DNA of 64,000 bases from a virus (lineage: Duplodnaviria > Caudoviricetes), in the IMG/VR virus record IMGVR_UViG_3300033076_001012, positions 25,028-89,027 of that record, one strand, 5' to 3'. This document shows, one piece after another, positions 3,474 through 59,027 of this stretch. The notes under the pieces are model-generated. The model did no database searches. It had not been told where the DNA came from and worked only from the letters and a program-made list of their open reading frames with translations. Numbering within the stretch: the first letter of the stretch is position 1; every line of letters starts with the position of its first letter. The position numbers and the translations under genes were made by a program.

Positions 3474-3707
3474 CTAAAATATCCAGCGCATTACAGGACT
3501 TCCGTCACTATGTATTAAAGGATTACCTTCTGCATCAACACATCCTTCTCTACCAATTGGTGAAAAGTCTTTTACTTCATCACCAACTTTCAAGTTATCT
3601 GGATTAGCACACCATGCAAATGTATAACCAATTGCATATTTGTTAGATTTGTGTCCAACAAGAATTGTCTTTCCAGATTCAGATAATTTACATACTGTAG
3701 TTTTCAT
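3474..3707 (-). CDS. hypothetical protein, first gene of leftward block
   Basis: ORF track; followed by terminator. Confidence 0.7.
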   Translation of the reverse strand: MKTTVCKLSESGKTILVGHKSNKYAIGYTFAWCANPDNLKVGDEVKDFSPIGREGCVDAEGNPLIHSDGSPVMRWIF

Positions 3708-3972
3708 AAGTTAAGTTTTTTGTGGTTAATACTTTAGCCTGGGTATCTTCCCCTGCCCAAAGCTATGTGGGGGTGATGATATGGGGTGGATCACCTCACC
3801 ACTCATATACCATTTTTTTTAAATTTTTAAAAAATTTTTTAAATTTTAAAATTTAATAATGCTATTTTAAAGGGGTCTAAAAACTATACAATCTACCTAA
3901 AAATATCATATTCCCTAAACATTGCTCAATTCACCAACCAACACTCTCCACAAAAACTAAATAACATTTTTC

Positions 3973-5196: not shown

Positions 5197-5461
5197 TTCT
5201 TTGATATAACCAGTTTAGGTTACTCGAACAAGTAGCTGACACTATAAGTTTGCTCTCTGAGCTTTAAAGTCAGTAATCCAACTATTATCATCTAATGTTG
5301 GTGGTTGATGTGGGGAAAACAACCTGTAAGATACTATCGAGTATAGATCTTACATAAACCCCAAACATTCATATAAAATGTTATCCTACTTCCCCGTACA
5401 TACAACCCCCTGAAGTATTGAGATAACATAAACATCCCCAACCCCCTAAAGTTGGGGTTTT
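5197..5461 (+). ncRNA. candidate structured ncRNA / attenuator B
   Basis: Own promoter; stems CTGAC/GTCAG, CCAAC/GTTGG, GGTTG/CAACC, TGTAAGAT/ATCTTACA; ends in a terminator. Confidence 0.55.
5436..5461 (+). terminator. intrinsic terminator
   Basis: CCCCAAC/GTTGGGG stem followed by TTTT. Confidence 0.75.
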
Positions 5462-23982: not shown

Positions 23983-25746
23983 ATGGCTGGTAAAAAAATA
24001 CATCAATTAGCAGAAACTACTTCATTGGATAGCAATGACAGAATACCTCTTGATAGATTTGGTACTGATAGTGAGTGGGGAAACTATTATATAAAAGCTT
24101 CTAATTTAGTTGGTACAATCAGTGGAAGTGGTACAGCTAATAAGCTAGTTAAATGGAACACTTCTTCAACACTTACAAATAGTGGTTTTTTAGCTGAAAG
24201 CGTTAATGGTATATCATTAACAACAGGTTACTTAGCTGTTGGAGATACAGTATCTGCAACTAACAGTTTATTGATAAAAGCTGTTGTAGCAAATACAAAC
24301 ATTGCTGACTTTAAAAAAACAGATGGTACATCTATAACAACAATATCTAACTCTGGATTTGTTGGTATAAATAAATCAACTCCATCTGCAACATTACATA
24401 TTAAATCTACAGGTACAACAATTCTACAAGTAGAAGAAAGTACTTCATCTATTTTAATGATGAAAATACATAATACAGGAGCTATTTCTTTAGGTAGAGG
24501 AGGAGCAGCTACAGGAGATGAAAGTATAGCTTTAGGCTATGGTACAACTGCTACTAATAGTAGTACTGTACTAGGATCATCTTCTTCAGGAACAGGAACG
24601 TATGCAGTAGTTATAGGAGCAGGTTGTAATACAGCTGTTAGAGCAACAGTTGTAGGTAGTTCTTCATCTGCATCAGGAGGATACGCTGTTGCTTTAGGTC
24701 AGGAAAATACAGCGAGTGGCGTAGGAGCATATGCTATGGGTTATTTAGCTACATCAAGTGCTGACTATGCATATGCTTTAGGTACTCAAACAACTTCTTC
24801 TCATGCACATTCCTATGCTATTGGAAGAGGAGCTACGACAGGAGCAACTAATCAAATAATATTAGGAAGCAGTGCTTCTTATGTTTATAAAGTAGGCATA
24901 AATACAAATACTACAGATGCAAATCTACATATAAAAACTACAGATAATAGTTCATCTTCAAAAGCTATATTGATTAAGAATTTAGCAGGTAATACATTAT
25001 TTGTACAAAACAATGATGGAAGTTTTGCCATAGGTAAGTCAGCTTCTAATTACAATAGTAGATCTGTAACAATAGGTGAAAGTGCGACAACTACACATCA
25101 GGAAAGCGTTGCGCTCGGTGCGCTATCTTCAGCAGGTTTATATACAGTTGCTTTAGGTGATCAAGCAGTTGGACTATCAAACTGTGTAGTTATTGGTAAA
25201 AACGCAACTACATCATCAAATGATGCAATTTCTATTGGAGGAGGTAGTACAGTAAATGGTTTAAGTTCTTATGTATTTGGAGTTAATAATACAATTAACG
25301 GTTCATACATAACTTGTTTAGGTTATAGCAATACATATACAGGAGGAGGCTCTGGAGAACCAACGTTTCTTTATGGTGAAAGTAGTAGATTTTTTATTGA
25401 AAATGTAAGAAATGGAATAGATAGAGAATTTAAATTACGATCTGTTACTTCAGATGGTACAACAACTTTAAAAAATTCTGCTATATTATTACTTTCTTCA
25501 TATTATAGTGGAAGTGCGAATGACTATGAATGTAATATAAAACATGAATTATTAACAACTTCACCAACAAGTATGTTAAATATATCATTTGGTGGAACAT
25601 CAAGATTTAAGTTTTATAGTAGTGGAAAAGCAAACTTCTCTAACTTACAAATTGGCAATGCAGGATTATCAACAGGTGACTTATATCAAGATACGGCAGC
25701 TAATATTTTAGCAGCTGGAGATAAAATAGTTGCGATTAAAGTTTAA
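23983..25746 (+). CDS. tail fibre/adhesin with YadA-head-like repeats
   Basis: ~14-aa repeats of type A.ALG..A.A....S.V.G. Confidence 0.75.
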   Translation: MAGKKIHQLAETTSLDSNDRIPLDRFGTDSEWGNYYIKASNLVGTISGSGTANKLVKWNTSSTLTNSGFLAESVNGISLTTGYLAVGDTVSATNSLLIKAVVANTNIADFKKTDGTSITTISNSGFVGINKSTPSATLHIKSTGTTILQVEESTSSILMMKIHNTGAISLGRGGAATGDESIALGYGTTATNSSTVLGSSSSGTGTYAVVIGAGCNTAVRATVVGSSSSASGGYAVALGQENTASGVGAYAMGYLATSSADYAYALGTQTTSSHAHSYAIGRGATTGATNQIILGSSASYVYKVGINTNTTDANLHIKTTDNSSSSKAILIKNLAGNTLFVQNNDGSFAIGKSASNYNSRSVTIGESATTTHQESVALGALSSAGLYTVALGDQAVGLSNCVVIGKNATTSSNDAISIGGGSTVNGLSSYVFGVNNTINGSYITCLGYSNTYTGGGSGEPTFLYGESSRFFIENVRNGIDREFKLRSVTSDGTTTLKNSAILLLSSYYSGSANDYECNIKHELLTTSPTSMLNISFGGTSRFKFYSSGKANFSNLQIGNAGLSTGDLYQDTAANILAAGDKIVAIKV

Positions 25747-55901: not shown

Positions 55902-56144
55902 TTAGAAAATTTTAGCCATTAAATAACCTATTCCAGTACCACACATAGCACCTAAAGCATATACTAATCTATCACTTTGTTCACCAAAAGCTATCTTTTT
56001 ACTATTAATTGCCCATGTATAACTAAGAAAAAAAGAACTAATTAACATTAACCAAATTAAATCTTTAGTTATACATTTAACATTAAATGCTACAAGAGAA
56101 ACTTGTAACATGGCAGTAAAGAATAATTTACTTTTTTCTTTCAT
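55902..56144 (-). CDS. small membrane protein
   Basis: Three hydrophobic segments. Confidence 0.65.
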   Translation of the reverse strand: MKEKSKLFFTAMLQVSLVAFNVKCITKDLIWLMLISSFFLSYTWAINSKKIAFGEQSDRLVYALGAMCGTGIGYLMAKIF

Positions 56145-56159
56145 TTTATTTATTTTTAC

Positions 56160-56232
56160 TTAAATTAACTAGTTTTCAATAATTTACTAACAAGTTTTAA
56201 GTTATTTATTTATTTTTTACCAATAGGTAAGG
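56160..56232 (-). ncRNA. DGR spacer 3 (structured RNA downstream of TR3)
   Basis: TTACC-TATT-GGTAA hairpin, then TTAGTA...GAAA element. Confidence 0.7.
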
Positions 56233-56254
56233 TTAAATATTAATTAAAATTAAG

Positions 56255-56336
56255 TAATAAGTACATTCACTGTTCCAATTCAGATTGTAATAGTTAGAAG
56301 AATTATAAACTAACTCACTACTAGAACTAATAGAAA
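56255..56336 (-). repeat. DGR template repeat TR3
   Basis: 82-nt match to 56444..56525; 19 mismatches, all at TR adenines. Confidence 0.95.
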
Positions 56337-56364
56337 GTTGTAATATTTAACCTACTAAGAACAA

Positions 56365-56766
56365 CTAATAATTGTTATCTCTTAGATTTTGATACTCTTT
56401 AATAAAATTCTCGCCAACAAAAGTAGCTATTTCAGAAGTTTTATAAAAAGCACATCCACCGACCCAACACAGAAAGAAATAGCCAGAAGAAATATAAACC
56501 AACCCACCACCAGAACCAATAGAAAAATGCGGAAAATATTTATATTCATTAGTATTTTTCCAATTTGGTTTCCATCCTTGATTAAAATATTTTTCAATTT
56601 GTTTAATTACTCTATAAGGACAACTAAATTGAGGTTCATTTAATCTCCTGCAAACTTCTTTATATGTAGTGCAAGTAAATATATCTTCACCATTTATAAT
56701 ATCTTTTAAGGCATCTACTTCTTTTTGTAGATCATTTAATTTATCTTGTGCTTGTTTTTTATTCAT
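56365..56766 (-). CDS. DGR target protein 3
   Basis: N-terminal coiled coil, W.PNW.N...YKY.P.F, VR3 near the C-terminus. Confidence 0.92.
   Translation of the reverse strand: MNKKQAQDKLNDLQKEVDALKDIINGEDIFTCTTYKEVCRRLNEPQFSCPYRVIKQIEKYFNQGWKPNWKNTNEYKYFPHFSIGSGGGLVYISSGYFFLCWVGGCAFYKTSEIATFVGENFIKEYQNLRDNNY
56444..56525 (-). repeat. DGR variable repeat VR3
   Basis: Encodes SIGSGGGLVYISSGYFFLCWVGGCAF; differs from TR3 only at adenines. Confidence 0.95.
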
Positions 56767-56789
56767 AATATTTGAGTTTGTTTACTATT

Positions 56790-56819
56790 AGCACATCTTA
56801 TAGAGATATAAGATGTGCT
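56790..56819. terminator. perfect 13-bp hairpin between cassettes 2 and 3
   Basis: AGCACATCTTATA-GAGA-TATAAGATGTGCT; function unclear. Confidence 0.45.
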
Positions 56820-56829
56820 TTAGTTTAGT

Positions 56830-56897
56830 TAATTCTGTTCAGCATTTAAGTTACTAAGAATATTGTTTTTATTGTTATCTTTTAGCAATAGCTAAGG
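56830..56897 (-). ncRNA. DGR spacer 2 (structured RNA downstream of TR2)
   Basis: TTAGC-TATT-GCTAA hairpin, then ATTCT-TAGTA...GAAC-AGAAT. Confidence 0.7.
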
Positions 56898-56914
56898 ATG
56901 TATACTATATATAA

Positions 56915-56986
56915 ATAGTAAAAACTAAGTGGATAGTTAGAGTTAGAATAATAGTTATTCACGTAATTCAAAGACTACCTATACTT
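56915..56986 (-). repeat. DGR template repeat TR2
   Basis: 72-nt match to 57085..57156; 18 mismatches, all at TR adenines. Confidence 0.95.
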
Positions 56987-57012
56987 TAGTTATAATATAC
57001 TATCCTACTAGT

Positions 57013-57441
57013 TTATTCTTCTAGCCAAGAATTATATAAAGTTAAAAATTGTTTAGCTATATACTCAGCAGATTTTTTATTTTTAAAGTAAAAACCAAGC
57101 GGAAAGATAGAGAAAGAATAATAGCCACCCACGCAATACAAAGACCACCCAGACCGTTTATTAAATTCAAAATATGGAATATATTTGTATTCATTATAAT
57201 TACCAAAATTGGGTTTCCATTCTTTGTTTTCATTATCAATAAAATTAACAGCTTTGATAATAGTTTTTAATTGTTCACTAAAAGAAGTAATGTTATAAAA
57301 TTCTATCCCTAATACTTTACAAGCATCTCTTAAACTTTTAATATCCTCTACTTTATATTCAGGAGCATTTATTATTTCTTTTAACTTATCGACTTCATAT
57401 TGTAAATCCTGTAATTTCTTTTGGGCTTCTGTTTTATTCAT
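57013..57441 (-). CDS. DGR target protein 2 (start MNKTEAQKK at 57441)
   Basis: ATG 4 nt after the RT stop; paralog of targets 1 and 3; VR2. Confidence 0.92.
   Translation of the reverse strand: MNKTEAQKKLQDLQYEVDKLKEIINAPEYKVEDIKSLRDACKVLGIEFYNITSFSEQLKTIIKAVNFIDNENKEWKPNFGNYNEYKYIPYFEFNKRSGWSLYCVGGYYSFSIFPLGFYFKNKKSAEYIAKQFLTLYNSWLEE
57085..57156 (-). repeat. DGR variable repeat VR2
   Basis: Encodes RSGWSLYCVGGYYSFSIFPLGFYF; differs from TR2 only at adenines. Confidence 0.95.
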
Positions 57442-57445
57442 AAAT

Positions 57446-58387
57446 TTATGTTTTAATATATTTGTTTTTAAGATTGATACCGTTACAATGATTAATCCAG
57501 CCATTATAACTAGCAATAGATTTATTATTCTTATTATATTTAATCATTTTAATGAAATTCTTTTTAATTGTTTTTCTAAGTTTAATATGTGTAGAATAAC
57601 TCACATAACCAACAAAATCTATTCCTCTATTTTTGATGGGAAATATTTGATAATTACTTAATTCTAATTTTAGATTATACCAAAGATAATTTTTTATATT
57701 ATTTAATATAATTCTTAATTCATTCTTATCATTACCTAATATAACTATATCATCGCAATATCTAAAATATTTAAGTTTTAATTCTTCTTTAATCCAATGA
57801 TCAAAATAAGTTAGATAAAAATTAGCAAAGAATTGTGAACAATAATTACCTATTGGTAAACCAACATTACTATCTATTATTTCAAATATTAAATTAAGTA
57901 AATTTCTATCTTTAAATTTTCTTAATAACAATTTTTTTAATATTTCATTATTAATAGAAGGATAGAATTTCTTTATATCTAATTTCAAACAGTATTCATA
58001 ATTTTTAACATCCTTATTTAAATCTTTTAAACAAAGATGTATACCTCTCTTTTTAATACATGAATAAGTTTGTTTTATAAAACATTTTAAAAATATAGGT
58101 TCTAATATATTTAATATTGCATGATGACATATCCTATCAGGATAATAAGGAAGTCTATATATTTCTCTTATTTTACCTTTTTCTTTAACTTTAAAAATAG
58201 TATAATTAGAGGTTTTATAAGATTTATTTAATAAAACATGATGTAAATTAATTAAAAGATCTTCTTTATTTCTATCAAATTTCCTTACACCATGTTGTTT
58301 AGACTTACCCTTTCTTGCCTTTTTTTCAGCTAATTTAATATTACCAATGCTACAAACTTGTTGATATAGATTACCTACTCTTTTCAT
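57446..58387 (-). CDS. DGR reverse transcriptase (313 aa from MKRVGNLY)
   Basis: LPYYPDRICHHAI, LKLDIKKFYPSI, GLPIGNYCSQ (DGR-type GxxxSQ), YFRYCDD, GIDFVGY. Confidence 0.96.
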   Translation of the reverse strand: MKRVGNLYQQVCSIGNIKLAEKKARKGKSKQHGVRKFDRNKEDLLINLHHVLLNKSYKTSNYTIFKVKEKGKIREIYRLPYYPDRICHHAILNILEPIFLKCFIKQTYSCIKKRGIHLCLKDLNKDVKNYEYCLKLDIKKFYPSINNEILKKLLLRKFKDRNLLNLIFEIIDSNVGLPIGNYCSQFFANFYLTYFDHWIKEELKLKYFRYCDDIVILGNDKNELRIILNNIKNYLWYNLKLELSNYQIFPIKNRGIDFVGYVSYSTHIKLRKTIKKNFIKMIKYNKNNKSIASYNGWINHCNGINLKNKYIKT

Positions 58388-58394
58388 AGTCTTT

Positions 58395-58470
58395 ACAATT
58401 AACACTTTTTCCACAATTAAGGTACTAAAGTATTTGTAAATATTCTGTTGTTTTTTGGCAATAGCCAAAG
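58395..58470 (-). ncRNA. DGR spacer 1 (structured RNA between TR1 and RT)
   Basis: TTGGC-TATT-GCCAA hairpin, then AATACT-TTAGTA...GAAAA-AGTGTT. Confidence 0.7.
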
Positions 58471-58498
58471 TTAATAATAGATTTATAAAGTAAAGAAA

Positions 58499-58564
58499 AG
58501 TAGACTCATTTGAATTAGAATTCCAGTTATTATCATAATGGAAAGACTAACTAGAGCTAGAATT
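58499..58564 (-). repeat. DGR template repeat TR1
   Basis: 66-nt match to 58659..58724; 15 mismatches, all at TR adenines; begins inside the target-1 stop codon. Confidence 0.95.
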
Positions 58565-59027
58565 AATTATTAACTTGATAAGAAAAATAATCTATATAAA
58601 TATGATTAAACTTTTTACAAGCATCTTGTAATAAATTATCTGCTTTAAAATGTTGACAAGCAGACCCACGTGAACTAGAAGTCCAGCCACTACCACAATG
58701 GAAAGACCAACCAGAGCCAGAACTAAATTTATAATAAGGTATATACTTATATATACTTGAATTATTCCAATCTAAAATAGTTTTTTCATTATAAGCTTGT
58801 ACTATTTTAGGGATAAGAGAACACGCATTTAAATATCTTTCTCTTTTATTTTTAGTATTTAAAGGAAAAATAATATAATCATTTATATCTTCTTCTAATA
58901 CATCAAAAACATCTTCTAAAGTTTGAATTCTATCTATTATATCTTCAGGAGAATTTATAATTTTTTCAAGTTTATCAATTTCTTTTTGTAAATTTTTTAT
59001 TTGCTTTTTAGCTTCTTCTTTTTTCAT
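58563..59027 (-). CDS. DGR target protein 1
   Basis: MKKEEAKKQIKNLQKEIDKLEKIIN N-terminus, DWNN...YKY.PY, VR1. Confidence 0.92.
   Translation of the reverse strand: MKKEEAKKQIKNLQKEIDKLEKIINSPEDIIDRIQTLEDVFDVLEEDINDYIIFPLNTKNKRERYLNACSLIPKIVQAYNEKTILDWNNSSIYKYIPYYKFSSGSGWSFHCGSGWTSSSRGSACQHFKADNLLQDACKKFNHIYIDYFSYQVNN
58659..58724 (-). repeat. DGR variable repeat VR1
   Basis: Encodes SSGSGWSFHCGSGWTSSSRGSA; differs from TR1 only at adenines. Confidence 0.95.

Follow-up and report, generated by a model that had tools for sequence, protein, structure and literature searches.

The prototype diversity-generating retroelement (DGR) is that of Bordetella phage BPP-1, which has the order mtd-avd-TR-brt, and DGRs with several template repeats (TRs) for a single reverse transcriptase (RT) have been reported as a minority and have received little study. 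In the MetaCSST survey, more than one TR was found in about 20% of the DGRs with several variable repeats (VRs), i.e., 55 of 948 DGRs (PMC6642488), and in 2025 three TR-VR pairs with one RT were described from the Zeta crAss phages Lera and ct1yV3 (PMC12386605). The DGR presented here lies in a 64,000-nucleotide stretch (the window; positions 25,028 to 89,027 of IMG/VR record IMGVR_UViG_3300033076_001012) and has three TRs which do not fit each other's VRs, each with a cognate VR, and one RT. An earlier note on this DNA had considered it the best candidate for an undescribed system in the window. Based on these reports, it is not a new kind of system, but a clean three-template example of a rare, already reported multi-template form.

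As in BPP-1, the TR/VR differences of the window DGR are restricted to template adenines, the target gene carries its VR towards the 3' end, and TR and RT are separated by a structured spacer. It differs from BPP-1 in that there are three TRs and three spacers, Avd was undetected, and no GC-rich initiation of mutagenic homing (IMH) site or cruciform was recognised. The targets are also different, being proteins of 133-154 aa with no detectable C-type lectin fold, and the locus is located in a block of nucleic-acid-metabolism genes instead of among tail genes. The closest published layout is that of Lera and ct1yV3, which are likewise Crassvirales-related and have one RT with three TR-VR pairs. 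In Lera, however, Avd is present, the RT (399 aa) belongs to another branch, and the targets are tail-fibre proteins that contain C-type lectin domains. Only the TR1-VR1 pair of Lera is purely A-mutagenised, other substitutions numbering 3 in pair 2 and 10 in pair 3; in the window all three pairs are clean, and a full spacer RNA accompanies each TR. The multi-TR DGRs in large surveys (MetaCSST, PMC6642488; a MAG survey, PMC11661182) resemble the window in that one RT is accompanied by two or more TRs, each of which has VRs of its own, but these surveys give counts only, with no analysis of spacer repetition; some of the cases are atypical or overlap-derived, and none is described as a tandem array of target, TR and spacer. 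The passages found in the large surveys of Wu et al. (PMC5758913) and Roux et al. (PMC8144416) do not discuss the multi-TR point, and the parts of the literature compared here hold no account of a spacer RNA repeated with each TR or of modular assortment.

Three template repeats beside one reverse transcriptase

On the minus strand the locus reads, from 59027 to 56151 of the window, target1-TR1-spacer1-RT-target2-TR2-spacer2-hairpin-target3-TR3-spacer3. The features are listed below; spacer scores are those of a covariance model, R1, which is described in the next section.

58563..59027, minus strand: target gene 1, 154 aa (open reading frame call); VR1 at 58659-58724, codons 102-123; ortholog L082_up 76% identical
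58499..58564, minus strand: TR1, non-coding, starting at the stop codon of target gene 1; 15/15 mismatches at TR adenines
58388..58475, minus strand: spacer RNA 1, RT-17-like fold, between TR1 and the RT start codon; R1 42 bits, E 2e-6
57446..58387, minus strand: DGR-type RT, 313 aa from ATG; motifs IGNYCSQ and YCDD
57013..57441, minus strand: target gene 2, 142 aa from the ATG at 57441; VR2 at 57085-57156, codons 96-119; nearest relative L085_dn, 40% identity
56915..56986, minus strand: TR2, intergenic; 18/18 mismatches at TR adenines
56815..56901, minus strand: spacer RNA 2, the weakest copy of the fold; R1 27 bits, E 0.003
56790..56819, no strand assigned: perfect 13-bp hairpin between spacer 2 and target gene 3; terminator-like listing on the plus strand
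56365..56766, minus strand: target gene 3, 133 aa; VR3 at 56444-56525, codons 81-107; ortholog L082_dn 73% identical
56255..56336, minus strand: TR3, intergenic; 19/19 mismatches at TR adenines
56151..56237, minus strand: spacer RNA 3; R1 40.4 bits, E 4e-6; ends just 5' of an 80-aa membrane-protein gene (55902-56144)

The earlier note had read this gene order correctly from the sequence and its open reading frames, and its account of the repeats was borne out by direct count. TR1 and VR1 differ at 15 of 66 nt, TR2 and VR2 at 18 of 72 nt, and TR3 and VR3 at 19 of 82 nt; all 52 mismatches are located at TR adenines and none at the 151 non-A positions. Pooled over the three pairs, the changes comprise 35 A>G, 13 A>T and 4 A>C. 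Since adenines account for only 31% (69/220) of the TR positions, 52 out of 52 cannot be due to chance (~0.31^52, roughly 1e-26). The proportion of TR adenines changed in the VRs, 52/69 (75%), is the saturation value for random-base replacement of each adenine. No TR fits the VR of another cassette, as the earlier note had also stated; the cross-pairs have 22-30% non-A mismatches at the best ungapped offset and therefore the three templates are not interchangeable. Past each repeat, the similarity between TR and VR decays within about 10-20 nt.

All three VRs are in frame and near the C-termini of the targets, and the TRs are non-coding. When the TRs are placed in the target reading frames, 64 of 68 adenines (94%) fall at codon positions 1-2, giving 14-18 variable codons per cassette and theoretical protein diversities of 10^11.7, 10^12.8 and 10^13.5. 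In-frame TAG codons are present on the minus strand in TR1 (58547-58549) and TR2 (56975-56977), but not in TR3, and the VR codon at these sites is TGG (Trp). An unmutated copy of either template would therefore truncate the target, and only an A-to-G change at the site restores Trp.

The RT matches Pfam RVT_1 at 2e-17 and phrog_1423, the PHROG RT family, at 6e-105. Among solved structures, PDB 8ub7_A is by far the closest to it; residues 2-302 align to this 328-aa chain, which bears the title 'Reverse transcriptase', (E 3e-39) with both the IGxxxSQ and the YxDD motifs in register; group II intron and retron RTs match only at ~1e-14 or worse. We take 8ub7_A to be the bRT of the Bordetella phage, an identity which a literature search for 8UB7 did not confirm, and the placement of the BPP-1 RT in the same clade as the window RT rests on this assumption. 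Based on the clade of the RT, the A-only TR/VR pairs and the spacer RNA, the locus is a genuine DGR. No second RT occurs in the whole metagenome-assembled virus genome (89,027 bp, ~94% complete).

The source virus is a divergent crAss-like phage, the large terminase subunit (TerL) of which is at most 40% identical to those of classified Crassvirales. Virion genes (terminase, portal, major head protein and giant proteins) are on the plus strand, and the minus-strand genes surrounding the locus are of the nuclease, exonuclease and polymerase-accessory types. The GC content at the locus is 23-27%.

The spacer RNA and its count among related loci

A hairpin whose stem shows compensatory changes (GGC/GCC, AGC/GCU, ACC/GGU) recurs in the stretches following all three TRs, as does a UUAGUA...GAA element; the non-coding stretch between TR1 and the RT is 111 nt. 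A consensus fold was derived from the TR-to-RT spacers of 59 distinct loci among 80 loci fetched as relatives of the RT. Over ~87 nt it comprises a hairpin, then an A-run, then a long stem with an invariant (G/A)GUA inside, and compensatory changes occur at 12 of the 13 consensus pairs in the 59 relatives. Model R1 was trained on the alignment of these relatives, the window sequence being excluded. When both strands of the 64-kb window were searched, R1 gave exactly three matches, one directly 3' of each TR, and the next best match reached 15 bits. Spacers 1 and 3 take the consensus architecture when folded alone (z score of -2.2 for spacer 1), and spacer 2 keeps the first hairpin (P1) with a short P2. 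The perfect hairpin at 56790-56819 overlaps the final bases of the spacer 2 match and has no counterpart after spacers 1 or 3; it may be a transcript end or a processing site.

The spacers resemble Rfam family RT-17 (RF03020) in the ACCuuGCC hairpin, the A-run, the stem enclosing UGGUA and the following GAA and AAAAGCA. However, all scores are below the gathering threshold of 40.4 bits (28.2 for spacer 2, 23.4 for spacer 3, no reported match for spacer 1, and 30.5-38.6 for the spacers of relatives), and the spacers are therefore termed RT-17-like and not members. A scan of 12 related loci against Rfam at the gathering threshold found tRNAs only. The resemblance suggests that RT-17 is a DGR spacer RNA and that the Rfam model or its threshold misses this large RT clade.

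The number of TRs in the 80 viral loci was determined with a detector based on 45-nt windows with no non-A mismatch and at least five A mismatches; the same detector with T as the base gave one match in 81 sequences. One TR was found in 69 of the 80 loci, usually serving two adjacent upstream VRs (target-target-TR-RT), and two TRs flanking the RT were found in four (L001, L003, L004 and L009). L069 was also a candidate two-TR locus, but the second match was taken as an artefact inside the VR region, and R1 finds only one spacer at this locus. The spacer counts of R1 agree with the detector, including the downstream copies that were outside the training set, and the spacer count equals the TR count at every locus examined. 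Two more two-TR lineages (L082-L084 and L085) were found among contigs with relatives of target 3, and 80 further metagenome RT loci never contained more than one spacer. In the classified gut Crassvirales cr115_1, cr7_1 and LMMB, there is one spacer, and large tail or fibre genes are beside the RT. In total, ~165 RT loci were sampled, in which multiple templates occur only in the low-GC subclade nearest the window (five two-TR lineages), and three templates only in the window. A survey of RT to TR ratios had been proposed in the earlier note; several TRs per RT are known from the literature, and three TRs are found only in the window among the ~165 loci.

The single-TR DGRs with two targets (~150 loci, and also cr115_1, cr7_1 and crAssphage LMMB) have an RT of the same clade and the same spacer RNA directly upstream of it. 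They differ in that one TR feeds two adjacent VRs, the canonical way of serving several targets, whereas in the window there is one TR per target. The environmental single-TR loci share the small target family of the window, whereas the targets of the classified gut crAss phages are large tail or fibre proteins. Another arrangement is present in L047, in which the TR (3823-3886) matches both a VR upstream of the RT (3652-3711) and a VR downstream of it (5294-5357), the latter in an 80-aa open reading frame. This is consistent with a one-template route to flanking targets or, alternatively, with the remnant of a lost second cassette. Relatives of the RT and spacer were also found on contigs of 0.35-1.5 Mb (L089, L096, L116 and L144), and because these contigs are very long, the same type of DGR also occurs in prophages or cellular genomes.

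Targets and origin of the modules

All targets belong to one family of proteins of 120-180 aa, with the motif NxGWxPDW...KYYPWF followed by the VR, a GSRLCF-like motif and two helices. An AlphaFold2 model of target 3, built from a 121-sequence alignment (A3), has a pLDDT (predicted local distance difference test) of 92.1 and a pTM (predicted template modelling score) of 0.80. It is predicted to consist of a long N-terminal helix, two short helices, a beta-hairpin and loop carrying the VR (residues 81-107) and two C-terminal helices. No solved structure was convincingly similar: the best Foldseek match in the PDB had an E value of 1.9, and the best match by VIA-align among 48,161 representative chains had a Z of 3.4 (root mean square deviation of 4.4 over 83 residues), with no C-type lectin among the matches; this lack of a solved relative is no proof of a new fold. 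Similar models in BFVD and the ESM Atlas are uncharacterised phage proteins only. Pfam matches among the 121 family members were isolated and weak (nine, best E 0.0017), without any family matching more than one member, and NCBIfam gave no meaningful match to the window targets. The targets thus make up a large family of small proteins, confined to phages, which has a confidently predicted structure but neither a Pfam family nor a solved structural relative.

Identity between the three window targets is 46-69% in the first ~26 residues, which form a heptad-like helix, and 23-29% in the remainder. At the DNA level, the initial 78 nt of the genes (58950-59027, 57364-57441 and 56689-56766) show 69-79% identity. 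The conservation of the N-terminal helix suggests a shared docking or oligomerisation module.

In the maximum-likelihood tree of the targets, target 1 (T1) clustered with L082_up and L009_up (support 100/98) and target 3 (T3) with L082_dn and L085_up (98/94). Target 2 (T2) grouped with L085_dn with modest support (87/87), the two being 40% identical. The relatives have the combinations T1-RT-T3 or T3-RT-T2, and the window has T1-RT-T2-T3. Since other phages carry separate orthologs of every window target, the modules are ancient and have been gained, lost or exchanged as units. A recent triplication in place is ruled out by the target tree. The earlier interpretation, in which the unit was duplicated and co-diverged while sharing one RT, is partly retained: the cassettes are paralogous, with one target family and one spacer fold, and there is a single RT, but duplication and co-divergence within this phage are not supported by the same tree.

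A more far-reaching proposal is that the unit of target, TR and spacer is a self-contained, exchangeable module that is served in trans by any RT of the clade and shuffled among phages. The three small diversified proteins, of an undescribed fold, with a conserved N-terminal helix and encoded among early/replication genes, would then perhaps be a combinatorial set of binders assembled on a common partner or with each other, for example as intracellular or counter-defence binders, and not a classical tail receptor-binding protein. Taken as a whole, this proposal is speculative and probably goes too far. If it were true, phages would collect and shuffle modules of target, TR and spacer.

Activity of the three cassettes

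The best explanation of the locus, to which we give a probability of roughly 0.72, is that three separate template RNAs are served in trans by a single Avd-less RT. A small target gene, a non-coding TR just past its stop codon and the ~87-nt structured spacer make up each module. By analogy with the Bordetella phage DGR, the complementary DNA (cDNA) would be primed in cis from an adenosine in the spacer of the same RNA. In BPP-1, the spacer downstream of the TR is required and binds RT-Avd, and the 2'-OH of its A56 primes the cDNA in cis (PMC6182149); the corresponding candidate priming site here would be the invariant adenosine of (G/A)GUA in the second stem. With cis-priming, a TR would work only with its own spacer, and therefore the whole unit of TR and spacer would be repeated and not the TR alone. 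The RT would copy each TR with random incorporation opposite adenines, and the cDNA would replace the cognate VR only, because the three TRs are too different from the other VRs. Three libraries with about 1e12-1e13 variants each would result, programmed separately and located in the three paralogous small proteins. We infer in particular the action in trans on all three RNAs, the cis-priming from the GUA adenosine and the present-day activity of each cassette.

Evidence for homing was obtained from comparisons among relatives. At the non-A sites where orthologous TRs differ, the VR carries the base of its own TR in 41 out of 41 cases (4/4 in cassette 1, 16/16 in cassette 2, and 12/12 and 9/9 in cassette 3), and therefore the transfer from TR to VR continued in all three lineages after the phages diverged. 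Two pairs of near-identical two-TR relatives were also available, although these twice-sampled relatives come from few samples, probably of one study. L003 and L004 are 99.7% identical over 7.5 kb, and their upstream VRs differ by six substitutions, all at TR adenines. Between L082 and L083, 8.6 kb contain only two differences, each of which falls on a TR adenine in the upstream VR. In these two-TR relatives the upstream VR has been freshly diversified. A 3-nt insertion is also present in the upstream VR of the first pair (L003:3725; L004:2869-2871), beside a TR adenine, and agrees with indels in DGRs that have been attributed to RT slippage (PMC5758913).

On the other hand, several results weigh against three active cassettes under one RT. 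L003 and L004 do not differ in the downstream VR, and eight contigs share one and the same downstream target protein; the RT-distal or downstream cassettes may thus have a lower homing rate and be much less active. Spacer 2 is the weakest copy, with 27 bits and several non-standard pairs. No GC-rich IMH or BPP-1-like hairpin was seen beside the VRs by eye, no dedicated test having been applied. No Avd homolog was found in a six-frame search of the whole ~94% complete 89-kb genome with PF05635 (E<=10), and the neighbouring open reading frames gave no Avd-like match in Pfam, PHROGs and NCBIfam scans. In Bordetella the RT requires Avd for activity (PMC6182149), and the biochemistry here may therefore differ from that of the model system. 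Avd is, however, not universal, since most Zeta crAss DGRs were reported to be without it (PMC12386605). Finally, neither the exact TR3 in viral contigs nor TR3 with N in place of every A in metagenome contigs gave any match, and there are therefore no strain variants of this phage for comparison.

These points bear on the possibility that the RT mainly serves the RT-proximal upstream cassette (target 1 and TR1), cassettes 2 and 3 having been inherited or acquired and decaying or rarely used, with homing that is seldom or no longer takes place. This would agree with the upstream VR alone differing between samples in both near-identical pairs, with the unchanged downstream target in the eight contigs and with the low score of spacer 2; moreover, in the published three-pair crAss example pair 1 alone is clean (PMC12386605). 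However, VR2 and VR3 have no non-A mismatch over 49 and 57 sites, respectively, and the co-variation of TR and VR in cassettes 2 and 3 (16/16, 12/12 and 9/9 non-A sites) requires homing well after the phages split. Spacer 3 also scores on par with spacer 1, and the small sampling of the relatives applies to this comparison as well. A single active cassette is regarded as unlikely, though it deserves serious consideration. Three independent libraries in this phage, as proposed in the earlier note, are plausible.

It could also be supposed that the three-cassette order results from an assembly chimera, in which related two-cassette strains were joined via the similar 5' ends of their target genes, because the record is a metagenome-assembled virus genome, the closest relatives have two cassettes and the first 78 nt of the targets are 69-79% identical. 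Such an identity is, however, far too low for read collapse or mis-joining, and outside the N-terminal helix the targets are only 23-29% identical. The flanks (the nuclease upstream and the 80-aa membrane protein downstream) match the synteny of L082 and the base composition is even across the cassette junctions, so that a chimera is very improbable. Ordinary tandem duplicates shaped by gene conversion and base-biased mutation without retrohoming, for which the very AT-rich genome and its skewed composition might speak, can practically be dismissed, as the 52/52 differences are strand-specific at the adenines of the non-coding copy (against one match in 81 sequences with T as the control base), the TR adenines are confined to codon positions 1-2, and a bRT-like RT and conserved spacer RNA adjoin every TR.

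The value of this locus lies in the repeated spacer RNA, the Avd-less multi-template RT, the modular evolution and the uncharacterised target family. It represents a natural case in which the expansion of a DGR repeats the TR-plus-spacer RNA with each new target and not the TR alone. Spacer repetition is a prediction of cis-priming, and the requirement for the spacer is therefore testable three times in one locus. In principle, several libraries that are programmed independently can be served by one RT lacking Avd, which provides a natural precedent for the multiplexed DGR mutagenesis that engineering groups seek to establish (bioRxiv 10.64898/2026.07.21.739853). Moreover, the clade forms a graded series of one, two and three templates, which bears on how new templates arise.

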